A stretch of 64,000 nt of DNA, taken from positions 1,794,590 through 1,858,589 of the forward strand of contig JASGKJ010000003.1 in the NCBI GenBank assembly GCA_047600665.1, written 5' to 3'. Source of the DNA: Ferruginibacter sp. (GTDB taxonomy: Bacteria; Bacteroidota; Bacteroidia; Chitinophagales; Chitinophagaceae). The translations under genes were made by a program, and so were the position numbers. How positions within the stretch are numbered: position 1 is the stretch's first letter; every line of letters begins with the position of its first letter. Shown here one piece after another: positions 4,420 through 50,076 of the stretch. Below the pieces are notes generated by a model. The model saw nothing but the letters and a program-made list of their open reading frames with translations. It searched no databases and was not told where the DNA came from.

Positions 4420-7400
4420 TTAAAGTGAGAAATTAAGACCGAATACCAGCTGCTTTGTCAGCGGGAATTCACCGGAACCACCCCTTTCAGGATCATAATT
4501 CTCTACTTTGCTGAATGTGAAATAATTTTTTGCTGTTACATAGAAAATAGCTGATTCAAACGGCAGCTTTTTAATGCTTGCCCTGTTCAGCGTGTACTGC
4601 AGCCTGATGTCTTTTATTTTTACAAATGAACCTGTCTGGTACCGGAGTGTGCTTAAGTACAGGTCATTACCATTTGTACGTGGCCGTGGATAAGCATTGG
4701 TTGGGTTCTCCGGTGTCCAGTAATCAACATTGGAAGTATTGAATATACCGCCGGTGTAATATGACCCTGCATAATCGCTGGAGATCATCTGGCCGATCCT
4801 CGCAAAAACCAGTACACTAAGCATAACATTCTTATAGCTTACCTGGTTGGTGATACCCGCAGTCCAGTCCGGTGTTGCTTTACCCAATACAATACGGTCA
4901 TCCGTTGCTGTTATTTTTCCATCGCCATTCAGGTCCTTCACTTTTATCTCACCGGGATTTGAATTATATCCCGTAGCCTGGTCTTTCTCGCCGGTCTGCC
5001 AAATACCCAGCTTTTGGTAATCATAGAATACCTGTAAAGGTTTACCAACAAACCATGCTTTTGAAATATCATCACCACCAACGCTCAACTGTACGATCTC
5101 TTCACGGAAAGTGGAGAAATTCATATCTGTTGTCCATTTGAAATTCTTTGAAGAAAAATTGACTGTGCTTAAATTGATGTCGATACCTCTTGTTTTTGTT
5201 TTACCAACATTATCAATGATAGAACTAAAACCGGTTGTTGTTGGCAGTATCCTTTCCATCAGCAGGTCACTTGTTTTGGTGGAATATACATCCACAGAAC
5301 CAGTGAGCCTGTTATTGAAGAAACCAAAATCAACGCCAAGGTTAAGTGATGTTGTTTTTTCCCAACTCAGTTCTTTATTGGCAACATTTTTTGGCCAGTA
5401 ACCAATAGCCGGTGTTTCATCAAAAGCGTATGGTATACGGCCAAGACCACCTTGTGTTTGATAAGGCTGTATGGCACTGTTACCTGATAAGCCGTAGCTT
5501 GCCCTCAATTTCAATTCAGAAAGAAAGTTCACTTTGCTCATGAAATCTTCATCATGAATTCTCCATGCAACGGCTGCTGATGGAAAACTAGCCCATTTAT
5601 TTCCTTCGGCCAGTACAGATGATCCGTCTGCACGGATTGAGCCTGTGAAGAGGTATTTTCCTTTATAATCATAGTTGATACGTGCAAAGCCGGATGCCAG
5701 CTGGCTTTCAACAAGGCTGCTGCTGATCCTGAGGTCAGTTGCATTGGCGCCCAGGTTATAAAACAATGCTGTTGCAAAGGGTTGGTTTTTTCCTTCAGCA
5801 GAAAAGGCCACCGTTCTGCCTTTTATTGCACTGGTTCCAACAAGTACATTCAGGTTATGATCATTAAAACTTTGTTTGTAGTTCAGTGTATTTTCCCATG
5901 TCCAGTTACGTGTTTTGATATCAGTGATAGAAGACTTGCTCATACCATTGTTCAATGATGCAAGCGTGTACAATGTGCCTTCATAAATACCCTGCTGGCT
6001 GTTGAAGATATCAATACCCATATTGGTTTTAAAAGTCAGGTTCTTTAAAATGTCCCATTGTGCAAAACCCACCATGAATATCCTGCTTGTCTTTGTATTA
6101 TTGGTATAGTTCATCGGGTCTTCATCCACCAATGGGTTCCTGTCCAGTGATCCTGGCCATGGATAAATTTTGATGGTGCCGTCATCATTATATGGTTTGC
6201 TGAAAGGCAATAATTTTCCAAGATTCCAGAAACTTGTATTACGCCTGTTCTGATCTGAGGAATTAAAATTAAGGATGGTACCAACTTTCAAAGATGGGGC
6301 GATCCTGTAATCGGCATTCAGGTGCTGCACAAAACGTTTCAATACATCATTTTTCAAAAAGCCCTGCTCCCTGAAAAACTCTGATGATAAACGCAGTGAT
6401 ATTTTATCATTGCCGCCGGATACTGCCACATGGTGACTGTTCACAAAACCATCATGCACCATTAATCCTGTCCAGTCAGTAGTTGTACCTTCTTTTATCA
6501 ACGAATAATTTGCTTTAAAAATAGAGCTGTCATCCGCCGGACTGCTCCACTGACCTGCAGCCCTGTACGCTTCACGTGTGATGGCTACATACTGATCCAA
6601 GTTAGATGGCTGTGCATATTTGCCAAGTGTATTAATACCAACATAATTACTTGCTTCTATTTTTGTTTTTCCTTTACCGCTTTTAGTAGTGATAAGGATA
6701 ACACCATTCGCACCTCTTGAACCGTAGATAGCTGTAGAAGATGCGTCTTTTAATATTTCAATCGAGGCTACATCATTTGGATTTACATCAATATAAGAAC
6801 CATATTGTATTCCATCCACCAGTACAAGCGGCTGGTTGGATGCATTGAGTGAACGGTTACCACGTACCGTAAAACTCATACCAGCACCTGTTTCACCTGA
6901 ACTGCGTACCAGGTCAAGCCCTGATACTTTGCCCTGCATGGTTTCAAGCACATTGGTCACTGGTGTGGAAGTGATCTGTTCCTGGCGCAATGAAACAACA
7001 GAACCGGTAAGATCTTTTTCTTCACACTGCCATACCCGATGATCACTACGTTATCCAGGCTTTGATTCAGTATCTTTTAATGTAATGTCAATGGATTTAC
7101 GGCTGCCGACAGTGATCTCCTGCTGTACATACCCAACATAACTGAATACTAAAATGGAGCTTGCTCCTTTTACATTGATCGAGTAGGTGCCCTTATCATT
7201 TGTAGTGGCACCACCGGTTTCATTCTTTACCGTTATGCTCACATTCGCCATTGGCTGACCCTGCTCATTTGTTACTTTACCAATGATGCTTTGCTCCGTT
7301 TCTTCTGGTCCATCTTTTTTAATAGCGATCAGGTGATCATTGATCATCTCGAAAGTAAGCCCGGCATTTTTTAGCAGCAGCTGCATCACTTCTGCAATGG

Positions 7401-40679: not shown

Positions 40680-41696
40680 ATGAGCCCAATACAGAAAGCA
40701 TTGCAGCAGCGGATACTGATTATAGATGGCGCCATGGGCACCATGATACAGCGGCATAAACCAACCGAAGCAACTTACAGGGGCGAAAGATTTAAAGACT
40801 GGCCAATAGATGTAAAAAACAACAGTGATATACTAAATCTTACCCAGCCTCAGATAATTGAAGGCATTCACCGGGAGTACCTGGAAGCAGGTGCTGATAT
40901 CATTGAGACAAACACTTTTGCTGCTACCACCATTGCGCAGGAAGATTTTAAGCTGGAAGCATTTGTACATGAGCTGAACGTGGAAGGTGCCCGTATTGCA
41001 CGCCGTGCAGCCGATGCTTATACCGCAAAGGATCCATCTAAGCCCCGCTTTGTGGCAGGTGCCATTGGGCCATTAAACCGAACATTGAGTTTATCCCCGG
41101 ATGTAAACAATCCCGGTTACCGTGCTGTAACATTTGATGAAGTGGCCAAAGCATACAAAGAACAAATAAAAGGGCTGGTAGAAGGTGGTGTAGATGTTTT
41201 ATTAATTGAAACCATCTTTGATACCCTTAATGCAAAAGCTGCCATCTATGCAGCAAAAAATTTCTTCAGGGAAAATAATATACCGGAACTGCCCATTATG
41301 ATCAGTGGTACCATCACTGATGCATCAGGCAGAACACTGAGTGGTCAAACGCTGGAAGCATTTTATACATCCGTTGCACATGCAAACCCACTAAGTGTAG
41401 GGCTGAATTGTGCATTGGGTGCAAACGAAATGCGGCCGCATATTGAGGAGCTGTCGCAAATAGCAGCCTGCCATGTATCTGCTTATCCAAATGCCGGCTT
41501 GCCCAATGCTATGGGTGAATATGATGAACAACCGCATGAAACAGCACATATACTTGAAGGATGGGCAAAAGAAGGATTCTTGAACATTGTTGGTGGCTGC
41601 TGCGGCACCACGCCGGATCATATAAAACATATTGCAGAAGAAGTAAGCAAATTCAAACCGAGAGAACTGCCCCTGATGGAAAAGGAATTAATTTAA
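40680..41696 (+). CDS. metH: Methionine synthase, N-terminal homocysteine-binding module
   Basis: [46 protein letters not shown] (Zn ligands). Confidence 0.96.
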
Positions 41697-41733
41697 CCAC
41701 AAAGGGCACTAAGAAAGCATACAAAGTTCACAA
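41696..41733 (+). repeat. Left arm of a 38-bp imperfect inverted repeat flanking the GxxExxY gene
   Basis: ACCACAAAGGGCACTAAGAAAGCATACAAAGTTCACAA matches the reverse complement of 42111-42148 at 31/38 positions with no gaps. Confidence 0.85.
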
Positions 41734-42116
41734 TGTTTACTGAAAATGACATAGCGAAGATTGTGTTTGAAGCAGGACTGAAAGTTCACAAAGCATTAGG
41801 CCCCGGGTTATTAGAAAGTGCTTATGAAGAGTGCTTATGTTTCGAGTTATCAAAAACAGGCTTATTTATAGAAAGGCAAAAATGTCTTCCGCTGATTTAT
41901 GAAGATATTAAAATGGAGGCTGGATACCGTGCTGATTTTATGATTGAAAACAAATTTATTGTTGAGATAAAAGCGATTGAAACATTAGCGGATATACATC
42001 TTGCTCAAATATTAACTTATTTGAAATTATCGAATTGCAAACTGGGTTTATTAATAAATTTTAATGTATTACTTTTTAAAGATGGGGTAAAAAGAGTTAT
42101 CAATGGTTCTTTGTGA
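41733..42116 (+). CDS. GxxExxY protein (PD-(D/E)XK-like fold)
   Basis: LGPGLLESAYEECL, RADFMIENKFIVEIKA, AQILTYLK...GLLINFN; 127 aa. Confidence 0.95.
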   Translation: MFTENDIAKIVFEAGLKVHKALGPGLLESAYEECLCFELSKTGLFIERQKCLPLIYEDIKMEAGYRADFMIENKFIVEIKAIETLADIHLAQILTYLKLSNCKLGLLINFNVLLFKDGVKRVINGSL

Positions 42117-42155: not shown

Positions 42156-44816
42156 ATGAGCACTATAAAACCATACTTACGTCTCAGCGGTCTTGAACCT
42201 TTGGTCATCAGGCCCGAAACCAATTTTGTAAATGTTGGTGAGCGTACCAATGTAACCGGCAGTAAAAAATTTGCACGGCTTATTAAGGAGAACAAATACG
42301 AAGAAGCATTGAGTGTTGCACGGCAACAGGTGGAAAGCGGCGCACAGGTGATCGATGTGAACATGGACGATGCTTTGCTGGATGGCGTGAAAGCAATGAC
42401 CACTTTCCTCAACCTGCTGCAAAGCGAACCGGACATTGCCAAGATACCGGTGATGATCGACTCATCCAAGTTCGAGATCATTGAAGCCGGGTTGAAATGT
42501 GTGCAGGGCAAATGCATTGTAAACTCCATCTCCATGAAAGAGGGAGAAGCAAAATTTATTGAACAGGCATTTATCTGCCGCAGCTATGGCGCTGCTGTTA
42601 TTGTAATGGCCTTTGATGAAAAAGGACAGGCGGATACAAAAGACCGCAAAGTGGAAATTTGTCACCGGGCTTATAAGATCCTTACAGAACAGGTAGGCTT
42701 TCCACCGCAGGATATTATTTTTGACCCTAACATATTTGCCGTAGCTACCGGTTTGGAAGAACACAATAACTACGGCGTTGATTTTATAGAAGCTACAAGA
42801 GAGATAAAACAACTGATGCCGCTTACTAAAATAAGTGGTGGTGTAAGTAATTTATCTTTTTCTTTCCGCGGCAATGATCATGTAAGGGAAGCTATGCACA
42901 GCGTGTTTCTTTACTACACCATCAAAGCTGGTATGGATATGGGCATTGTAAATGCCGGACAGCTGGTTGTATATGATGAGATAGAACCTGCGTTGAGAAA
43001 TTTATGTGAAGATGTGATCCTTAACCGTAACAATGATAATAACGAGGCTACGGAAAAACTAATTGCATTTGCAGAAACAGTAAAAGCAAAAGGCAAAACA
43101 GAAGTAAAAGATGAAGCCTGGCGAAACCTGCCGGTTGAAAAACGTTTGGCGCACTCACTCGTAAATGGCATTACAGATTATATCGATATAGATACAGAAG
43201 AAGTAAGGCAAAAATCTGCAAGACCCTTAGATGTGATCGAAGGCCCGCTGATGGATGGCATGAACATCGTAGGTGATCTCTTCGGCAGCGGTAAAATGTT
43301 TTTACCCCAGGTGGTAAAGAGTGCCCGTGTGATGAAGAAAAGTGTGGCGTACTTACAACCCTTTATTGAAGCTGAAAAACAGGAAGCATCCAATGCACCC
43401 ACCGTTTTACTGGCAACAGTAAAAGGTGATGTACATGATATCGGTAAAAATATTGTGGGCGTGGTGCTGGGTTGTAATGGTTACACCGTAGTTGACCTGG
43501 GTGTGATGGTGCCCGCTGATAAAATTTTAGAAGAAGCAAAAAAATGTAATGCTGCTATTATTGGTTTATCAGGATTGATCACACCATCGCTGGATGAAAT
43601 GGTGCATGTAGCACACGAAATGAAACGCCGGGAAATGAACCTGCCGTTGCTGATTGGTGGTGCCACTACTTCCCGTATGCATACAGCGGTAAAGATCGCA
43701 CCACAATATGATAAAGGCGTGGTGCATGTACTGGATGCAAGCCGCAGCGTAACCGTGGTAAGCAGTTTATTAAGCAATGAACAGAAAGCAGATTTTCTTG
43801 CCGGTATAAAAACGGAATACACAAAGCTGGCAGATGATTTCAATAATAAAAAAGCCGTTAAGCAATTTTTACCATTTGCAGCAGCGCAACAAAATACAGT
43901 AAAAATTAACTGGGAAAATTTCAAACCTGTTCAGCCAACTTTTACAGGCGTTAAAGTTTTTGATAATTATTCTTTACAGGAAATAGCAAACTATATTGAC
44001 TGGCAGCCGTTCTTTATTGCATGGGAACTGCATGGAAAATTCCCACAAATATTAAGCGATGAAAAGGTGGGTGCAGAAGCCACCAAACTGTACAATGACG
44101 CCAACATCCTGCTTAAAAAGATCATTGATGAAAAATGGCTGACCGCCAAAGGCACGGTTGGTTTTTGGGAAGCGAAGAAAACAGCACCGGATTCTGTACA
44201 GGTAAAAGATGGTGACTCAACCATCAAATTAGAATTTTTAAGACAGCAGGTAAAGAAAGCTGCTGACCAGCCCAACATATCGCTTGCTGATTTTATCAGC
44301 CCTGGCGGCAACGACTATATGGGCGCTTTCTCTGTAACGATACAGGGCATCGATCAGCATATTAAAAACTTTGAAGCGGCCCATGATGATTACAACAAGA
44401 TCATCCTGCAGGCGCTGGCCGACCGTTTTGCAGAAGCATTTGCAGAATGCCTGCATGAAAAGACAAGAAAAGAGTACTGGGGCTACGACAAAGCAGAAGC
44501 ACTCTCCAATGAACAATTGATAAAAGAAGAGTATGCAGGCATCCGTCCTGCACCAGGCTATCCCGCCTGCCCCGATCATACAGAAAAATACAAGCTGTTC
44601 AATTTACTGGGCGGCGAAGCAAATACGGGTATCCATCTTACTGAAAGCTTAGCGATGTATCCGGCATCTTCTGTTTGCGGCTGGTATTTTGCAAATCCTG
44701 AAAGTAAATATTTTGGTGTGGGTAAAATTGATAAGGACCAGCTGGAAGACTACGCTAAACGAAAGGAGATGGATATTGATGAAGTAACGAGGTGGCTAAG
44801 GCCGATACTGGAATAA
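42156..44816 (+). CDS. metH: Methionine synthase, pterin-binding, B12-binding and reactivation module
   Basis: [26 protein letters not shown] (B12 His ligand), [22 protein letters not shown]. Start moved to MSTIKP. Confidence 0.97.
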
Positions 44817-44904
44817 CAAACCGGTTTCCCGCAATTGTTTTGCCGCAAGTTTATTTGTACAGAAAAGCACTGATTGTCAAGGTAAACTTGTACAAGGAGT
44901 TGCG

Positions 44905-44912
44905 TATATTTG
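44905..44912 (+). promoter_or_regulatory. -7 element (TATATTTG) heading the cassette array (Pc-like promoter)
   Basis: TAnnTTTG match 3 nt upstream of the first GTT half-site. Confidence 0.7.
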
Positions 44913-44915
44913 AGA

Positions 44916-44927
44916 GTTGGTGGCAAT
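44916..44927 (+). repeat. Lone right half-site GTTGGTGGCAAT (attI-like entry point of cassette 1)
   Basis: Identical to 45789-45800, but no left arm or central repeat lies upstream. Confidence 0.7.
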
Positions 44928-44977
44928 ATTAAAAGAGCTTACGTTTCCAAAACTCAGTTGACAAAAAACGTTACAGT

Positions 44978-45586
44978 GTGACGCAGATCTTCAGCAAAAG
45001 CAAACTTAATCGCATGTTTCGCTTAGGTTATCGACTTGCCTTCGAGACAACAAAACCCAAAAAGAAAGATTGGGAAGACATTTATTCGCTTTGGCTGTGT
45101 GCGGCTAAAGGTGGACATAAAAGAGCGCAATTTTATTTGGGCACTTGCTATGACAATGGGTATGGGACAGAGAAAAATTTGCAATTAGCATTTGAGTGGT
45201 ACTTAAAAGCTGCAAAGACTGGACATAGAGACGCTCAATACAATGTTGGTTTTTTCTTTTCTACTGATGAACTTGGTATTAAGAACGACAAGAAAAAAGT
45301 ATTTTGGTATTCTAAAGCCGCAGAAGCTGGACTTATTGATGCACAAAGAGATTTAGGTTATTCATATTTCTATGGAGAAGGAATTAAGAAAGATGAAACG
45401 AAAGCTGTTTATTGGTATAAAAAGGCTGCATCAAAAAACGACGAAAAGGCACTTTACAATTTAGGACTTTGCTACAAACACGGTGACGGGGTTAATCAAT
45501 CAAATCGCTGGACGAAATATTACTTTGAACAAGCAAAAAAGTTTGGACATAAAGAAGCGGCAAAGGAATTACGAAAATTAGGCTGA
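44978..45586 (+). CDS. Cassette 1: Sel1-like repeat protein
   Basis: Repeated AQFYLGTCYDNGYG, AQRDLGYSYFYGEG and ALYNLGLCYKHGDG. GTG start; a later ATG at 45014 is possible. Confidence 0.9.
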   Translation: MTQIFSKSKLNRMFRLGYRLAFETTKPKKKDWEDIYSLWLCAAKGGHKRAQFYLGTCYDNGYGTEKNLQLAFEWYLKAAKTGHRDAQYNVGFFFSTDELGIKNDKKKVFWYSKAAEAGLIDAQRDLGYSYFYGEGIKKDETKAVYWYKKAASKNDEKALYNLGLCYKHGDGVNQSNRWTKYYFEQAKKFGHKEAAKELRKLG

Positions 45587-45593
45587 CGACAAT

Positions 45594-45800
45594 ACTGCCA
45601 CCAACAAACGGTTTTGCGCAAGTGTGGCTGGACAAACTAATCTTCAGCCTTACTTCGTTACTCAGCTTCAGTTTCGGGCGGACACAGCAACTTTGGGCAT
45701 TAGTTCTTACCTTCAGCTAAACAAAACTATCAGCGGTTGTTCCGGGCGGACGCAATTCTAATTCCACACCTGCAGCAAAGCCGCCAACGTTGGTGGCAAT
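45594..45800 (+). repeat. attC-like repeat 1
   Basis: TGCCACCAAC (45596) / GTTGGTGGCA (45789) pair perfectly. Inner arms GGTTTTGCGCAAGTGTGG / CCACACCTGCAGCAAAGCC pair with one bulged base. Spacers are 4 and 6 nt. Confidence 0.85.
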
Positions 45801-45818
45801 TATAAACGACCCTTCATT

Positions 45819-46493
45819 TTGAAAAATATTGTTAGACAAAACCTGTTAGTCGGATTTCTAATTTCACTACTTTCTTGTGGTCAGACAAATAAGTTTGATG
45901 ACAAGGATACCGTCAATCACAAAATAACTTCAACAAATCAATTCCCGTTTCAAAAGGCAAAAGATAAATACAACGAACTCCTAGATATCAAAGGCAGCTA
46001 CAATTATATTTCGGTTGACACAGCATCTATTAAATTACTGACTGAAAATGAAATTACAGGTTTAGACAATTTTGATTGTTACAGATTTACAATATTTAAT
46101 GGAGCCCATTACGAATATAATAGTGGACAAATCATTTGCATTGGGTTGGTTTCCAAATCAGACACCAACGACCTTAGGATTTTATTTCCAAAAGACTACA
46201 CAAAAAGTTCTTTAAATTTCTATGACCCATTCTTAAACAGTAAAATTTCTGACAGAAAGAATTATTGTACAAAACTTTCAAACCTGATAAACTATTTCAC
46301 ATCGTATCAAATAAAAAATATTGAATACAGTTATTTGGACGCCAACAATTTGCTGACAGTTATTTCTAAACATACAGTTCAGACTTACGACATAGTTTCT
46401 AAAAAGAATACATCATTTTTACAATCAGACACAATCCAATTTATATTTAGCGGAGATACATTGAAATCGTTTTTACAAGTCAGTGGAAAATAA
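45819..46493 (+). CDS. Cassette 2: hypothetical lipoprotein
   Basis: TTG start, lipobox LLSC; no family motif recognised. Confidence 0.75.
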   Translation: MKNIVRQNLLVGFLISLLSCGQTNKFDDKDTVNHKITSTNQFPFQKAKDKYNELLDIKGSYNYISVDTASIKLLTENEITGLDNFDCYRFTIFNGAHYEYNSGQIICIGLVSKSDTNDLRILFPKDYTKSSLNFYDPFLNSKISDRKNYCTKLSNLINYFTSYQIKNIEYSYLDANNLLTVISKHTVQTYDIVSKKNTSFLQSDTIQFIFSGDTLKSFLQVSGK

Positions 46494-46699
46494 CTGCAAC
46501 CAACAAAAGGTTTGCCGCAAGGCTGGCGGACGTAATAACAATCGGCAGTTGTACTATTATCAGCTAATATCGGGCTTGACCGAATTCTATTTGGCTTTTA
46601 GTTGTTAACTTCAACATCGGTTTTTCAATCGGCTTCAGTTGCCGGGCAGACAGTTATAAAATATCAGCCCTGCGGCAAGCCTCGAACGTTGTGTGTAAC
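46493..46699 (+). repeat. attC-like repeat 2
   Basis: ACTGCAACCAAC-aaaa-GGTTTGCCGCAAGGCTG ... CAGCCCTGCGGCAAGCC-tcgaac-GTTGTGTGTAAC. Confidence 0.85.
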
Positions 46700-46702
46700 T
46701 TT

Positions 46703-47239
46703 ATGAAGACCTTCAAATCAAACATATGCATTTACATTAGTTTAACCTTTCTTCTGTTGACATGGCTTTTTGTTGGAATATTTAGAGACAGTGAGTTTTA
46801 CGAACCCTCAATATTTACAAAGTATAGACCGACATTTAAGGTATTTTTTTACACTCCAATTGGCGAATCAGACTTAGAAATGGAAGAACTTTCCACTAGT
46901 AAGCAAAGTGAGGAAATAGCATTTCAAGAATTCGTTATTAAACAACATCAACAATATAACAGTGATTCAAAACTTTGGTATTTACCCTTTATTTTAATCC
47001 AGTTGACTCTGACATTTTTATGTTTTGGCATTTTCAAAAACTGGACTAACCTGACTTACAAAAATTGGCAACTGGCAGTACATTTCTTAATCAATATAAT
47101 AATCACCACTGCTGGACTTGCATTTTTATTATCATTTGACAAAACCATAATTACAATGCTCATAATAGTCATTATTCTAGCAGCCAATTGCTGGGCAATA
47201 ATTTTGCTTACAAAGCGAAGGTTAAGAATAACAACTTAG
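46703..47239 (+). CDS. Cassette 3: hypothetical integral membrane protein (~4 TM)
   Basis: Four hydrophobic segments. Start set to ATG 46703, just after the GTT site. Confidence 0.75.
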   Translation: MKTFKSNICIYISLTFLLLTWLFVGIFRDSEFYEPSIFTKYRPTFKVFFYTPIGESDLEMEELSTSKQSEEIAFQEFVIKQHQQYNSDSKLWYLPFILIQLTLTFLCFGIFKNWTNLTYKNWQLAVHFLINIIITTAGLAFLLSFDKTIITMLIIVIILAANCWAIILLTKRRLRITT

Positions 47240-47267
47240 ATTTTGTAATTACGGACATTCAACAAAA

Positions 47268-47470
47268 GCTACACATAACATTAGTTTTTATGCAAGTTGA
47301 GCATGATCAGCAACATCAGCCAATTGCAAAGCCTAGCAGTGCCTCAGGAGGAACAAACCACTTTGAGCTTTAGTTCTTAATTTCAATATCAGTTTTTCAA
47401 CCGGCAGCCGCTGTGGGCAGATGGATCCCAACCGGGATAAGGCCATACCCTTTATGCGCAAGCCATTTGA
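47268..47470 (+). repeat. attC-like repeat 3 (degenerate, right GTT lost)
   Basis: Starts GCTACACATAAC. The core AGTTCTTAATTTCAATATCAGTTTTTCAACCGGC matches repeat 2 at 29/34. It ends GCGCAAGCC with no GTT. Confidence 0.7.
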
Positions 47471-47532
47471 TTTCCTTCTAATAACGACAAAAATATTTGA
47501 CTGAATTTGTCTGCACATACCCGAAGTATTTT

Positions 47533-47925
47533 ATGAAAGTAACCTTAAGATTTAAAATTTTATCTAGCCTTTGGAGTGCTGTTATTTCCATGTTACTTTT
47601 AGCGTGTAATTCGCCGCATGATAAAATGATTGATACAATGAGCAAACAATCCTATTGTTTAGAAAAGGTTACTGATTCTGACAGTTCTATTTTTCTTCCT
47701 GGTGCCCAATTACATCTAAAGCCTGACAATTCTTTTTTTGTGTCAAGCGAGGACAATCAATTGTCAAAAATAACTGGTGAGTGGGACTTGTGTTGTTCGG
47801 GCTCAGGCTACGGTAATTATGTATTTAAGATAAAAGGATTACCTGAATGGACACAAGCGAATACAGATTTCTTTGTTTTAAGATACGGAAGGAAAATCAG
47901 ACTGTTTTTCAAAATGTGCAACTAG
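47533..47925 (+). CDS. Cassette 4: hypothetical lipoprotein
   Basis: Lipobox LLAC. Start set to MKVTLRF. Confidence 0.7.
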   Translation: MKVTLRFKILSSLWSAVISMLLLACNSPHDKMIDTMSKQSYCLEKVTDSDSSIFLPGAQLHLKPDNSFFVSSEDNQLSKITGEWDLCCSGSGYGNYVFKIKGLPEWTQANTDFFVLRYGRKIRLFFKMCN

Positions 47926-47934
47926 ACTTTGACG

Positions 47935-48146
47935 ACTGCGTACAACAGTTGGTTTGGCAATAGACTGGCAGGACGTTGCCCTGCCCAAGCGGCAGTAATT
48001 CTATTTGGCTTTTGTGCGTGGCTCAACAAGCTACGCAGAACTTTTATTTGTTACCTTCAATATCAGCAATTTATTGAGCTTCGGTTCCTGGGCTGGATAA
48101 GCAATGAATATCCTGCCTTCGGCAATACTCGGTCGTTGCAGACAAT
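47935..48146 (+). repeat. attC-like repeat 4
   Basis: ACTGCGTACAAC-agtt-GGTTTGGCAAT...GGCAGGA ... TCCTGCC-TTCGGCAATAC-tcggtc-GTTGCAGACAAT. Shares the 17-mer AATTCTATTTGGCTTTT with repeat 2. Confidence 0.8.
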
Positions 48147-48174
48147 TTTTCTAAGCATTATTAATTAACTATCT

Positions 48175-48651
48175 ATGAAAAAAATATCACTTAGTTCATT
48201 AGTCATAACACTTATTAGCTTTTCAGTCATACTTTTTATTACGACTGGTTGCAAAACATCAAAGGCTAATGTTTCCGGCAGCATGTCCAAAAATCAACTG
48301 TTGATTGAAAAAACATGGCAGGTAGATAAACTTTATCATGTTATTTCCGGGCAATATTCTTCTTATACAAGGGGAGGGCCGAATACCACCGGCATTAATT
48401 ATGATCTGCTTCGGTTCACATTTAATGCTGACGGAACGGGTAAGCATATTGGTCCTGATAATAAAACTTATTACTTTAGCTGGAAACTTAATCCAGGTGA
48501 CAGCCGGAGTTTACTCTTAACGAATAATGGACGAACTGATAGCTGGGATATGTTAGAGATTGCAGGTGACTATTTACATGCTGCAGCAAACTTAAACATC
48601 AACGGAGACACCAACAACTTAGAAGTATTCAGGTTAATACAGGTTAAATAA
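48175..48651 (+). CDS. Cassette 5: lipoprotein with a lipocalin-like beta-barrel (tentative)
   Basis: Lipobox TTGC; LLIEKTWQV...FTFNADGTG...FSWKL pattern. Confidence 0.7.
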   Translation: MKKISLSSLVITLISFSVILFITTGCKTSKANVSGSMSKNQLLIEKTWQVDKLYHVISGQYSSYTRGGPNTTGINYDLLRFTFNADGTGKHIGPDNKTYYFSWKLNPGDSRSLLLTNNGRTDSWDMLEIAGDYLHAAANLNINGDTNNLEVFRLIQVK

Positions 48652-48706
48652 CAACAAAACTGCTTGCGATATTGGATGAGTTAGGGTCAAACTATTAAAC
48701 ACGCTG

Positions 48707-49285
48707 ATGAAAAAAGCATTTTTTATATCAATCTTTACGCTGTTTGCCGGCATTTTATTTGGACAGCTAAAGAGTCCGGTAAGAGAATTATTCTTTGGAA
48801 TTAATTTGAATGCTTCCCGTAAAGCAATTTACAATCAGTTAGCTTCGGATAAACGCTTCTTTCAAAAAGGCTATATTGAAACTGATAGCCTATCGCCTTT
48901 TTATCATGGAGAATTTCATGGTTTAAGCTTTGATAAAGGATTGGTTGAGGCAAAACCAGATTCTATTGAAATTAGCCTGAATTGGTTAAAAATTAGCAGG
49001 CTGGTGAAAAATGGAGAGCACGAAACCATCAATAACTTAATATTTTTTTCTAAATACTATTACAGCTCGAATGATATCGCAAAAAAGGAATATCAACAGA
49101 TAATTGATTTAGTATCCAGGAAAAATTCTGATACATCTCATCAAGAAAGATATATTCATTTTCCTGTTCCAATTGAAAGTACAAGGTTTAATTTCCGCAA
49201 ACCAGCCTATCAGCTTGAGATTATGTTATTCAATTTCGATGCTACGCATTCAGAATTACATTTGTCATTTATCCGTAAGGAATAA
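48707..49285 (+). CDS. Cassette 6: hypothetical secreted protein
   Basis: Sec signal peptide MKKAFFISIFTLFAGILFG; no family motif recognised. Confidence 0.7.
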   Translation: MKKAFFISIFTLFAGILFGQLKSPVRELFFGINLNASRKAIYNQLASDKRFFQKGYIETDSLSPFYHGEFHGLSFDKGLVEAKPDSIEISLNWLKISRLVKNGEHETINNLIFFSKYYYSSNDIAKKEYQQIIDLVSRKNSDTSHQERYIHFPVPIESTRFNFRKPAYQLEIMLFNFDATHSELHLSFIRKE

Positions 49286-49398
49286 AATATCATGGGCATA
49301 TGCCTCCTGGCAGGAGTTGTGTAAAATAAACCGGCTTTAATAATCAGGCAGGGAACAAGTTAGCGGCTGTACCACACTTTTCGATTCCAAATGCAGTC

Positions 49399-50076
49399 TC
49401 ACACCATCATCGCTGCTGCCACAAACTGGCTGCAAACACCCACTATTAACCCGGTGTAAATTTCTTTTGGTGTATGATCACTTACGATCATCCTTGAAGT
49501 ACATACGGCACCCGTAATAAAAAAAGCCAGCGCCAGCGGCCAGGTCATCAGCATGCTGTTCAGCAACATGATCACCAGGAAAATACCGATCAGCCCGCCC
49601 ATACCAATGGCATGCATGCTGATCTTGAAATAGATGTTTGCCAGCAGCGCCGCAGAGGAAGCCAGGAAAACACCAAAGGTAAATGCTGTCAAGATGGATG
49701 GTATCTCGGGCTGGTTGCGGAACACGAGATATGTCCAGAAGAAAAAGATACCACAGGCAATGTATGGTATGATGCGTTCTTTCTGTGTGCGGAGAAAAAT
49801 TGATTTATTGAAACCAAGTGCTTTCAGCAATAACACCGTCAGCAATGGAAAAAACACCATGGTGTAACTCACCCTGATAACGATCCACCATTTTTGTGCT
49901 GCACTGTATCCTGTAAAATAGGACGGGTGTATAAAAGTTAAGAACCAGGTAACATATACCGGGATGAAAAGGGGGTGAAAAATATAAGAGAAAAGATGTG
50001 CTAGTATCCTAATTAGCAAAGGTGAACCATCAGCCCTTATTTCCCCGCTTCCATCTATTGACAATTGAGTATTCAC
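49399..50076 (-). CDS. PAP2-like integral membrane protein
   Basis: About 6-7 TM helices; KISMHAIGMGG and SRMIVSDHTPKEIYTG resemble PAP2 motifs 2 and 3. Confidence 0.65.
   Translation of the reverse strand: MNTQLSIDGSGEIRADGSPLLIRILAHLFSYIFHPLFIPVYVTWFLTFIHPSYFTGYSAAQKWWIVIRVSYTMVFFPLLTVLLLKALGFNKSIFLRTQKERIIPYIACGIFFFWTYLVFRNQPEIPSILTAFTFGVFLASSAALLANIYFKISMHAIGMGGLIGIFLVIMLLNSMLMTWPLALAFFITGAVCTSRMIVSDHTPKEIYTGLIVGVCSQFVAAAMMV

Follow-up and report, generated by a model that had tools for sequence, protein, structure and literature searches.

The window analysed here, the whole 64,000-nucleotide stretch of Ferruginibacter sp. DNA, carries a methionine synthase gene, metH, which is followed by five small plus-strand open reading frames (ORFs) that encode a Sel1-repeat protein and four lipoprotein or membrane protein orphans, with repeats lying between them. 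The subject of this study is the region that separates metH from the first of these ORFs, referred to as the head. In our reading, which we put at a probability of roughly 0.78 and which was drawn from sequence comparison, nucleotides 44817-44915 serve an integron-like cassette system of Bacteroidota as its primary attachment site, analogous to attI, and the first captured cassette begins, at its 5' end, with the adjoining sequence GTTGGTGGCAAT. The attI-like interpretation of the head, taken by itself, is probable to much the same degree. The locus comprises the following features (E values of repeats are from nhmmer):

42156-44816, +: metH (methionine synthase), stop codon TAA at 44814-44816; assigned from the Pfam domains of an identical protein (P0001)
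44817-44915, +: head, attI-like region of the array; complete, no recombinase gene adjoining
44978-45586, +: ORF of cassette 1, Sel1-repeat protein (Pfam Sel1, E = 1.6e-31), start GTG 44978 or ATG 45015
45594-45800, +: attC-like repeat 1, left end ACTGCCACCAAC, right end GTTGGTGGCAAT at 45789 (E = 1.9e-40)
45819-46493, +: ORF of cassette 2, predicted lipoprotein, no family match
46493-46699, +: attC-like repeat 2, right end GTTGTGTGTAAC at 46688, inverted arms 46508-46525 and 46665-46682 (E = 1.3e-70)
46691-47239, +: ORF of cassette 3, small membrane protein, no family match
47266-47462, +: attC-like repeat 3, match spanning model positions 18-189 only
47534-47925, +: ORF of cassette 4, predicted lipoprotein, no family match
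47935-48146, +: attC-like repeat 4, left end ACTGCGTACAAC, right end GTTGCAGACAAT at 48135 (E = 2.7e-31)
48175-48651, +: ORF of cassette 5, predicted lipoprotein, no family match

The C-terminus of MetH, RPILE followed by the stop codon, is native: its relatives end in RPILE or RPILD and then diverge at once, so that foreign DNA begins right after the metH stop. The GC content is 31-38% across 44900-49400 compared to ~43% in the flanks, and no array occurs downstream of metH in the nearest relatives (MetH at most 84% identical, no shared downstream synteny). The drop in GC content and the absence of the array behind metH in these relatives point to an array that is foreign to its host.

The head region and its counterparts in other genomes

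The head and the adjoining half-site are composed of several short modules:

44825-44853, +: two direct motif copies, TTTCCCGCAATTG (44825-44837) and TTTGCCGCAAGTT(TA) (44839-44851), read from the sequence
44854-44870, +: TTTGTACAGAAAAGCAC, counterpart of the conserved AACAATACAAAAAG motif, containing the first TTGTACA; by-eye comparison with other loci
44870-44882, +: CTGATTGTCAAGG, corresponding to the palindrome TTGATAATCAA / CTGATTGTCAA that other heads conserve; ttgaaaatcaa in the aligned profile consensus
44883-44894, +: TAAACTTG, right arm of an inverted repeat, overlapping the second TTGTACA; a single-strand fold pairs 44846-44853 with 44883-44890
44896-44915, +: core GGAGTTGCG-TATATTTG-AGA, conserved left half of the crossover site, with a candidate -7 box at 44905-44912
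44916-44929, +: half-site GTTGGTGGCAATAT (R'-type, GTTRRRY class), 5' end of cassette 1

The original prediction had named a TAnnTTTG box 3 nt before a half-site, an inverted repeat further upstream and repeated TTGTACA. All of these can be read directly: the box at 44905-44912, the arms CAAGTTTA (44846-44853) and TAAACTTG (44883-44890), which are perfect over 8 nt, and TTGTACA at 44855-44861 and 44888-44894. The left arm CAAGTTTA is included in the second motif copy, TTTGCCGCAAGTT, and AGA at 44913-44915 separates the box TATATTTG from GTTGGTGGCAAT. The core has one exact match in the whole window. The crossover was placed between 44915 and 44916, or between G and TT under the integron convention. 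The half-site is complementary to the left repeat end of its own cassette at 13 of 14 positions, and the next-best site reaches 8. Correspondingly, 44916-44930 and 45591-45605 form an inverted match of 15 nt (93%), and the 12-mer GTTGGTGGCAAT (44916-44927) has exact copies in the window only at 44916 and 45789, together with an inverted copy with one mismatch at 45594-45605.

Heads of other arrays were located by an upstream search for the complement of the first repeat's left end, array by array. In about 20 unrelated loci, the complementarity match was preceded by the core of the window, and more than 30 unrelated loci of Bacteroidota have the form (T/G)CGTATATTT(A/G)NGN^GTT (^ marks the crossover) ahead of their first cassette. 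Loci with the same core directly before the first cassette (numbered with L) include L092, L052, L081, L082, L042, L078, L119, L087 and others; examples and the three core variants are:

Window: GGAGTTGCGTATATTTGAGA^GTT
L092: GCTGCGTATATTTAAGA^GTT
L052 and L081: GTGCGTATATTTATGA^GTT
L082: CATGCGTATATTTGAGG^GTT
L042: GTTGCGTATATTTAAGT^GTT
L078: GTTCGTATATTTAAGT^GTT
L119: GGTGCGTATATTTGAGC^GTT
Core variant type 1: CGTATATTT(A/G)NGN^GTT
Core variant type 2: GCGTnTAATAnCATAAATTTAnGT^GTT
Core variant type 3, a true palindrome: for example TCGTATATT-GCGAT-AATATACGA^GTT (L146)

The head is no chance pairing of a promoter with a half-site. The same core with a GTT half-site heads repeat-bounded arrays elsewhere, usually just downstream of a tyrosine recombinase gene, which supports the attI-like head that had been predicted; a search for such box-GTT heads beside repeat arrays or a tyrosine recombinase found the core so placed in many genomes. 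Between the recombinase stop codon and the core, these heads share a short lineage-specific motif, the AACAATACAAAAAG motif, the TTGATAATCAA / CTGATTGTCAA palindrome and a T-rich run. The lineage-specific motif occurs in two to three direct and inverted copies, often as a hairpin plus T-run, and the palindrome module is present as identical CTGATTGTCAA in L121 and as GATTGATTGTCAA in L142. A profile built from 23 recombinase-linked head regions, all from other genomes, gave a single match in the window (44857-44926, E = 1.3e-5), in which the palindrome and the core were aligned and the T-run was missing. The inverted repeat and the TTGTACA copies are therefore best taken as diverged versions of modules conserved in recombinase-linked heads. 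Their conservation is compatible with protein binding.

Heads without a recombinase gene adjoin unrelated genes, such as those for a translational GTPase-like (L092) or an rpsP-like product (L079), judged by N-terminal sequence; L052, L081, L082 and L042 provide further contexts of this kind. L087 (Fibrisoma limi) retains a decayed recombinase fragment, and gene loss is therefore one documented route to orphan heads.

Repeats, cassettes and the linked recombinase

The repeats have a left end of the RYYYAAC type (ACTGCCACCAAC) and a right end of the GTTRRRY type (GTTGGTGGC). In the consensus (ACTGCAGCCAAC...GTTGGCTGCAAT), these inverted RYYYAAC (R'') and GTTRRRY (R') core sites flank an imperfect palindrome. 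The repeats, 197-212 nt long in the window and ~215-225 nt in other loci, share a conserved central module. As single-stranded DNA (ssDNA), repeats 1 and 2 fold with a ~35-bp terminal stem. An inner stem of 14 pairs with conserved bulges, the arms of which lie ~155 nt apart, shows compensatory double changes at 11 of the 14 pairs, in 16-29 sequences each (84 repeats from different loci). At columns 30/217 of this inner stem, 59 of the 84 repeats have a T.G wobble on the coding strand, and G.T is favored about 2:1 over A.C overall. This bias hints that the folded form is the top strand or the transcript, not the bottom strand.

A degenerate 21-nt left-arm pattern, searched in species-representative genomes, matched at least 119 stretches. 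Nearly all of them belong to Bacteroidota, mainly to Chitinophagaceae and also to Cytophagales, Sphingobacteriales, Saprospiraceae and Flavobacteriales; a profile search then gave 383 repeat copies, with up to 10 per 8 kb. In 118 consecutive pairs, complementarity was scored over 11 variable positions. The left end of a repeat matched the preceding repeat's right end (the 5' end of the cassette to which the left end belongs) at 8.1 of them, the right end of its own repeat at 4.6 and a random end at 4.4 (99 versus 12 pairs, p = 1e-17). The longest ORF lay on the array strand in 133 of 138 cassettes, which have a median length of 736 nt and a median leader (5' untranslated region) of 39 nt. As far as sequence patterns can tell, these data show that the downstream repeats are attC-like hairpin sites and that the cassettes are discrete units joined at ^GTT.

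In the window, repeat 3 departs from this scheme at its right end (47450-47462), which reads CTTTATGCGCAAG where GTT is expected, so that cassettes 3 and 4 probably form a fused unit that can no longer be separated. The left end of repeat 3, GCTACACATAAC, is complementary to the start of cassette 3, GTTGTGTGTAAC. A different arrangement was found in L086 (6119-6143), where the array begins 24 nt past an ORF with an acyl-CoA dehydrogenase-like C-terminus; the junction reads ...GTGAAGA^GTTGGCTGTAAT and contains no CGTATATTT core. This looks like a cassette that was inserted at a secondary GTT site instead of the head.

A tyrosine recombinase gene ends 100-150 nt upstream of the head core, on the same strand, in L076, L078, L119 and L038, and as a decayed fragment in L087. 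As a test from the protein side, an alignment of three of these recombinases was scanned on metagenome contigs, which yielded more than 360 relatives, with 80 loci kept. Repeats were present in 23 of the 32 recombinase loci with at least 1.5 kb of downstream sequence, and all 75 repeat matches lay downstream of the recombinase on the same strand, none upstream or inverted. The core was located 95-180 nt past the recombinase stop codon in 23 metagenome loci, and the crossover placed by complementarity fell 109-160 nt after the recombinase gene in 14 of the 21 loci so placed. Across these loci, the comparisons show that the head core normally lies 95-180 nt downstream of a co-oriented tyrosine recombinase gene of the Xer/IntI clade with ~400 codons.

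The recombinase (~400 aa) matches Pfam Phage_integrase and SAM_4. Its NCBIfam scores for XerA (214), XerC (192) and XerD (182) are each below the respective cut-off, and the integron integrase model TIGR02249 matches in two stretches with ~180-181 bits against a cut-off of 265 bits. The alignment has a gap of 31-41 aa at the IntI1 insertion (IntI1 residues ~197-245). The nearest solved structures are archaeal XerA (4a8e, 5hxy) and IntI4/VchIntIA (2a3v), with the catalytic part accounting for most of the fold matches. An AlphaFold model (mean predicted local distance difference test score 83) places an additional alpha/beta domain, predicted with confidence, at residues 1-83, followed by a disordered linker (84-108); at the IntI insertion point, it has a short beta-hairpin only and no helix. 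The family has at least 6,657 members at E <= 1e-40, which are named only 'XerD' or 'tyrosine(-type) recombinase' and often lie on short contigs. Two members, P0121 and P0124 (64% identical), are encoded on the L119 contig (117,886 nt). The pair and the short contigs suggest that several platforms occur per genome and break assemblies.

Two further observations concern the recombinase loci. The array of a Flavihumibacter metagenome-assembled genome (L027) contains a differing tyrosine recombinase (4885-5769). It was rejected as the enzyme of the system and regarded as cargo, being 33% identical to the platform enzyme and antisense within a cassette-like unit. A ~22-nt motif, GTGA(C/G)TGAG(N3-4)GCGAAGC, occurs 40-120 nt upstream of the recombinase start in L133, L143, L159, L165, L169, L175, L182, L078 and others; L139 and L145 have it between the recombinase match and the head instead. 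The motif was not found in the window and may be a regulatory element or a platform end.

Several findings weigh against the head of the window as a working attachment site of an integron-like system. The head is diverged and has no T-rich run, which is found in most heads. No tyrosine recombinase is encoded within the 64-kb window, and none of the best 120 family members listed lies on the window's own 3.22-Mb contig. Moreover, the ssDNA folding energies of the top and bottom strands of 191 repeats differ by 0.6 kcal/mol, which does not discriminate between them, and the recombinase has no insertion of the kind by which IntI reads folded attC, so that the chemistry may differ from that of integrons. 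As the recombinase is absent from the window and the head is complete, we regard the array as an orphan, which would therefore be served in trans from elsewhere in the genome or be frozen.

Overlap of the core with a candidate promoter box, and alternative readings

In Bacteroidota, the sigma-A promoter consensus consists of TTTG at -33 and TAnnTTTG at -7. The sequence TATATTTG at 44905-44912 is an exact TAnnTTTG and lies 4-11 nt before the crossover. A promoter role of the head, similar to that of the cassette promoter Pc of integrons, is plausible, and for the conserved TATATTTG to double as a -7 box we see about even odds. As had been predicted, the later gaps of the array are free of this motif: no plus-strand copy occurs in 45587-45818, 46494-46690, 47240-47533, 47926-48174 or 48652-48706, and elsewhere in the array plus-strand copies lie only inside ORFs (45890 and 47199). 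Since an exact box lies in the 150 nt before just 3 of the window's ~49 gene starts, the box-free gaps are weak evidence that the gaps are promoterless. Window-wide, TAnnTTTG is depleted on both strands (49 found compared to 80.6 ± 9 expected; all of 100 shuffles gave at least 49), which is compatible with spurious promoter boxes being selected against in a genome of Bacteroidota.

The most serious alternative, which has a substantial chance of its own that falls somewhat short of even, is that the head is a recombination site only, that the promoter match is incidental to the core TATATTT(A/G), and that cassettes are read through from metH or from weak internal promoters. In its favor, TATATTT is conserved jointly with flanking positions that have no part in a promoter (TGCG upstream, an inner TA, AGA/TGT downstream), the final G of the box is an A in most heads, and some head types (type 3) have no box beside the crossover. 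In the window, a -33 TTG or TTTG is missing at the spacing of 19-21 nt from the box; the closest TTG elements upstream end at 44890 (14 nt away) and 44876 (28 nt away). A terminator-like site was not seen from the metH stop (44816) to the head core in a sigma-70 promoter scan, the promoter model of which does not apply to Bacteroidota, so that transcription may read through from metH. Elsewhere, 34 of 133 internal gaps carry a TAnnTTTG of their own. These points tell against the promoter part of our reading. On the other side, the box is exact for the Bacteroidota -7 consensus in a genome in which the motif is depleted, and in many heads (L147, L158) a hairpin plus T-run lies between the recombinase gene and the core, which would make a new promoter necessary. 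In addition, TTTG is found 18-21 nt upstream of the box in several heads (L078, L119, L131, L092), and cassettes are co-oriented with short leaders.

SOS control of the head was considered as well and dropped. The LexA-like motifs described for Bacteroidetes are GGA-N5-TCC and CTAA-N5-TTAG (PMC8565304); neither occurs in the head, and TTGTACA is no known LexA box.

It is very unlikely that the head is what decay has left of an attC-like repeat from an older cassette, in a plain repeat cluster without a dedicated attachment site. The idea draws on TTTCCCGCAATTG and TTTGCCGCAAGTT, which are similar to the left inner arm of the repeat (consensus GGTTTGCCGCAAGG), on TTTGCCGCAAG, which is identical to the repeat inner-arm consensus, on 44807-44841, which a repeat search of the window grouped with the left-arm family at 63%, and on TGCG...TTGA..^GTT, which loosely resembles the right end of a repeat. 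The original prediction that neither a left arm nor a central repeat precedes the box consequently needs a qualification with respect to these arm-like motifs. It holds for the repeat profile, which finds no repeat copy upstream of the head or in it, and for the central ~150-nt module, which is absent from the head. Furthermore, the part of the supposed left arm that overlaps ACTGGAATAA is the native end of metH, the head matches the profile of recombinase-proximal heads, and the core is found at a fixed distance from the recombinase gene in many loci.

Least likely is an ordinary promoter for an operon of small genes, ahead of repeats that are structured intergenic elements (RNA stabilizers, terminators or elements like repetitive extragenic palindromes). 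This would suit both the T.G wobble in 59 of 84 stems and a central module whose sequence is conserved across families, as is unusual for attC. It could hardly account, without circular cassette intermediates, for complementarity to the own cassette rather than within the same repeat. It is also at odds with repeats that are strictly linked to, and co-oriented with, a tyrosine recombinase gene, with unrelated orphan ORFs of low GC content and with an array in which Rfam found no family.

If the head is an attI analogue, the recombinase would bind the core at its left arm, GTTGCGTATAT, as well as the short motifs that recur in the head, and would pair the head with a circular cassette through the folded repeat of the latter. 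Strand exchange would occur at the boundary between the ~6-nt AT-rich spacer (TTGAGA) and the GTT arm, and new cassettes would thereby enter at the head. With TATATTTG as a -7 box, for which the odds are about even as stated, transcription would start at ~44917-44922 and express the head-proximal, mostly promoterless cassettes. There may be a second family of gene capture, phylum-wide in Bacteroidota and so far unnoticed, that combines an insertion-less Xer-like recombinase with an extra N-terminal domain, ~215-nt hairpin sites and a core doubling as a -7 box, with an orphan copy behind metH; for this combination as a whole, we would not go beyond an even bet.

Relation to known systems and further observations

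The arrays share several traits with integrons: attC-type inverted ends with a stem, a boundary between G and TT with an R'' that complements the 5' end of its own cassette, and an attI-like site at the array head beside the recombinase, recognized by position and conservation only. An adjacent integrase with the IntI insertion in its catalytic domain and the usual attC length, about 57-141 nt, were not found. Because the recombinase has no IntI insertion and is co-oriented with the array, the system is not a classical integron.

The closest likeness is to sedentary chromosomal integrons such as the Vibrio cholerae superintegron with its V. cholerae repeats (VCR). Both have small, co-oriented and mostly promoterless orphan ORFs, each with a RYYYAAC/GTTRRRY imperfect-palindrome site, a crossover at GTT, an own R' remainder per cassette, repeats that are alike within an array, and a dedicated head site beside a tyrosine recombinase of the Xer/IntI clade. 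Unlike in sedentary integrons, the recombinase has no IntI insertion, carries an extra N-terminal domain of ~85 aa and lies upstream of the array in the same orientation, not divergently. The sites are ~205-225 nt long, their central module is conserved across Bacteroidota families, and the head core is conserved across genera. Treponema denticola has an integron with a co-oriented ('inverted') integrase, which is a true IntI with the insertion and acts with attC sites of ordinary size. Our arrays resemble it in that recombinase gene and cassettes share one direction of transcription, and differ in the missing insertion and the longer sites.

With class 1 integrons and their attI1/Pc region, the head has in common a simple core with repeated, here putative, protein-binding motifs upstream at the front of the array, and one upstream promoter, a candidate here, that is expected to drive the cassettes. 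Pc lies inside intI1, ~200 nt from the crossover, whereas the candidate -7 box is situated 4-11 nt away, inside the core, and the head of the window has no sequence similarity to attI1.

Xer/dif systems and integrative mobile elements exploiting Xer (IMEX) come into view as the recombinase is about equally near to XerA/XerC/XerD and to IntI. A Xer/dif core has two recombinase-binding arms of ~11 bp around a central region of 6-8 bp that is cleaved at its borders; the geometry of the head core would fit this, with 11-nt arms on either side of a 6-nt AT-rich spacer (GTTGCGTATAT / TTGAGA / GTTGGTGGCAA). The left arm in L052, GGTGCGTATAT, resembles the XerC arm of E. coli dif, GGTGCGCATAA, which is a lead only. 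Unlike in Xer/dif, the right arm is supplied by the cassette and variable, the sites occur in many copies linked to cassettes instead of once per replicon, and the partner site is a ~215-nt hairpin-forming repeat.

By default, IntegronFinder limits attC to 200 nt, and the repeats were probably never scored as attC. Clusters of attC sites without an integron integrase have been termed CALIN (Cury et al. 2016, PMC4889954). With four repeats and no recombinase in 64 kb, the window array corresponds to such a cluster (at least two attC, no integrase within 4 kb), its sites being attC-like by their ends and stem. Unlike CALIN, which have no attI by definition, it keeps a complete head homologous to recombinase-linked heads.

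Integrons are considered almost absent from Bacteroidetes; apart from In0 (integrase-only) elements, IntegronFinder 2.0 detected a single complete one there, in Salinibacter (PMC9024848). Recombination of folded attC is considered to require the IntI insertion, which was described as 'not fully conserved' in a subgroup of 'integron-like' recombinases (PMC8138268). No description of the present arrays was found in the literature searched, and the cassette system, which appears to be undescribed so far, is widespread in Bacteroidota, with attC-like arrays at well over 100 loci in Chitinophagaceae, Cytophagales, Sphingobacteriales, Saprospiraceae and Flavobacteriales. If functional, it would mean that cassette capture evolved, or was retained, without the IntI insertion, and that soil and freshwater Bacteroidota hold a large hidden pool of mobile orphan genes. 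It would also offer a compact head in which an attachment site and a candidate promoter overlap, making the question of how captured cassettes are expressed directly testable. If the core doubles as a -7 box, each new cassette would land a few bases from the transcription start.

Two features mark the distal part of the island:

48650-48688, +: short head-like or truncated site AACAACAAAACTGCTTGCGATATTGGATGA^GTTAGGGTC, full repeat missing there; by eye
48707-49285, +: sixth low-GC ORF, no repeat after it

The ~40-nt site looks, by eye, like the left end of a repeat joined to a head-like core (TTGCG-ATATT-GGATGA^GTT; compare TTGCGTATATTTGAGA^GTT) and may be a collapsed repeat or an older head. 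The sixth ORF is probably the distal end of the island; beyond it, housekeeping genes including rpoN follow on the minus strand. Exact-protein look-ups for the products of cassette 2 and rpoN found no identical protein. Sequencing runs were searched with the window and with L165, and no RNA run matched. The only DNA run, from an unrelated soil metagenome, contained a contig with a ~93% identical cassette 2 ORF (window 45966-46500), and several other contigs matched the repeats, which is consistent with cassettes moving between organisms; the run had no informative junction at the window head.

On the other side of the array, metH is split into two genes. A 127-aa ORF (41733-42116) lies between the homocysteine S-methyltransferase gene (40680-41696) and metH. 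In relatives, a DUF1016/YhcG or PDDEXK_3 nuclease gene takes this position, which suggests that insertions recur here.

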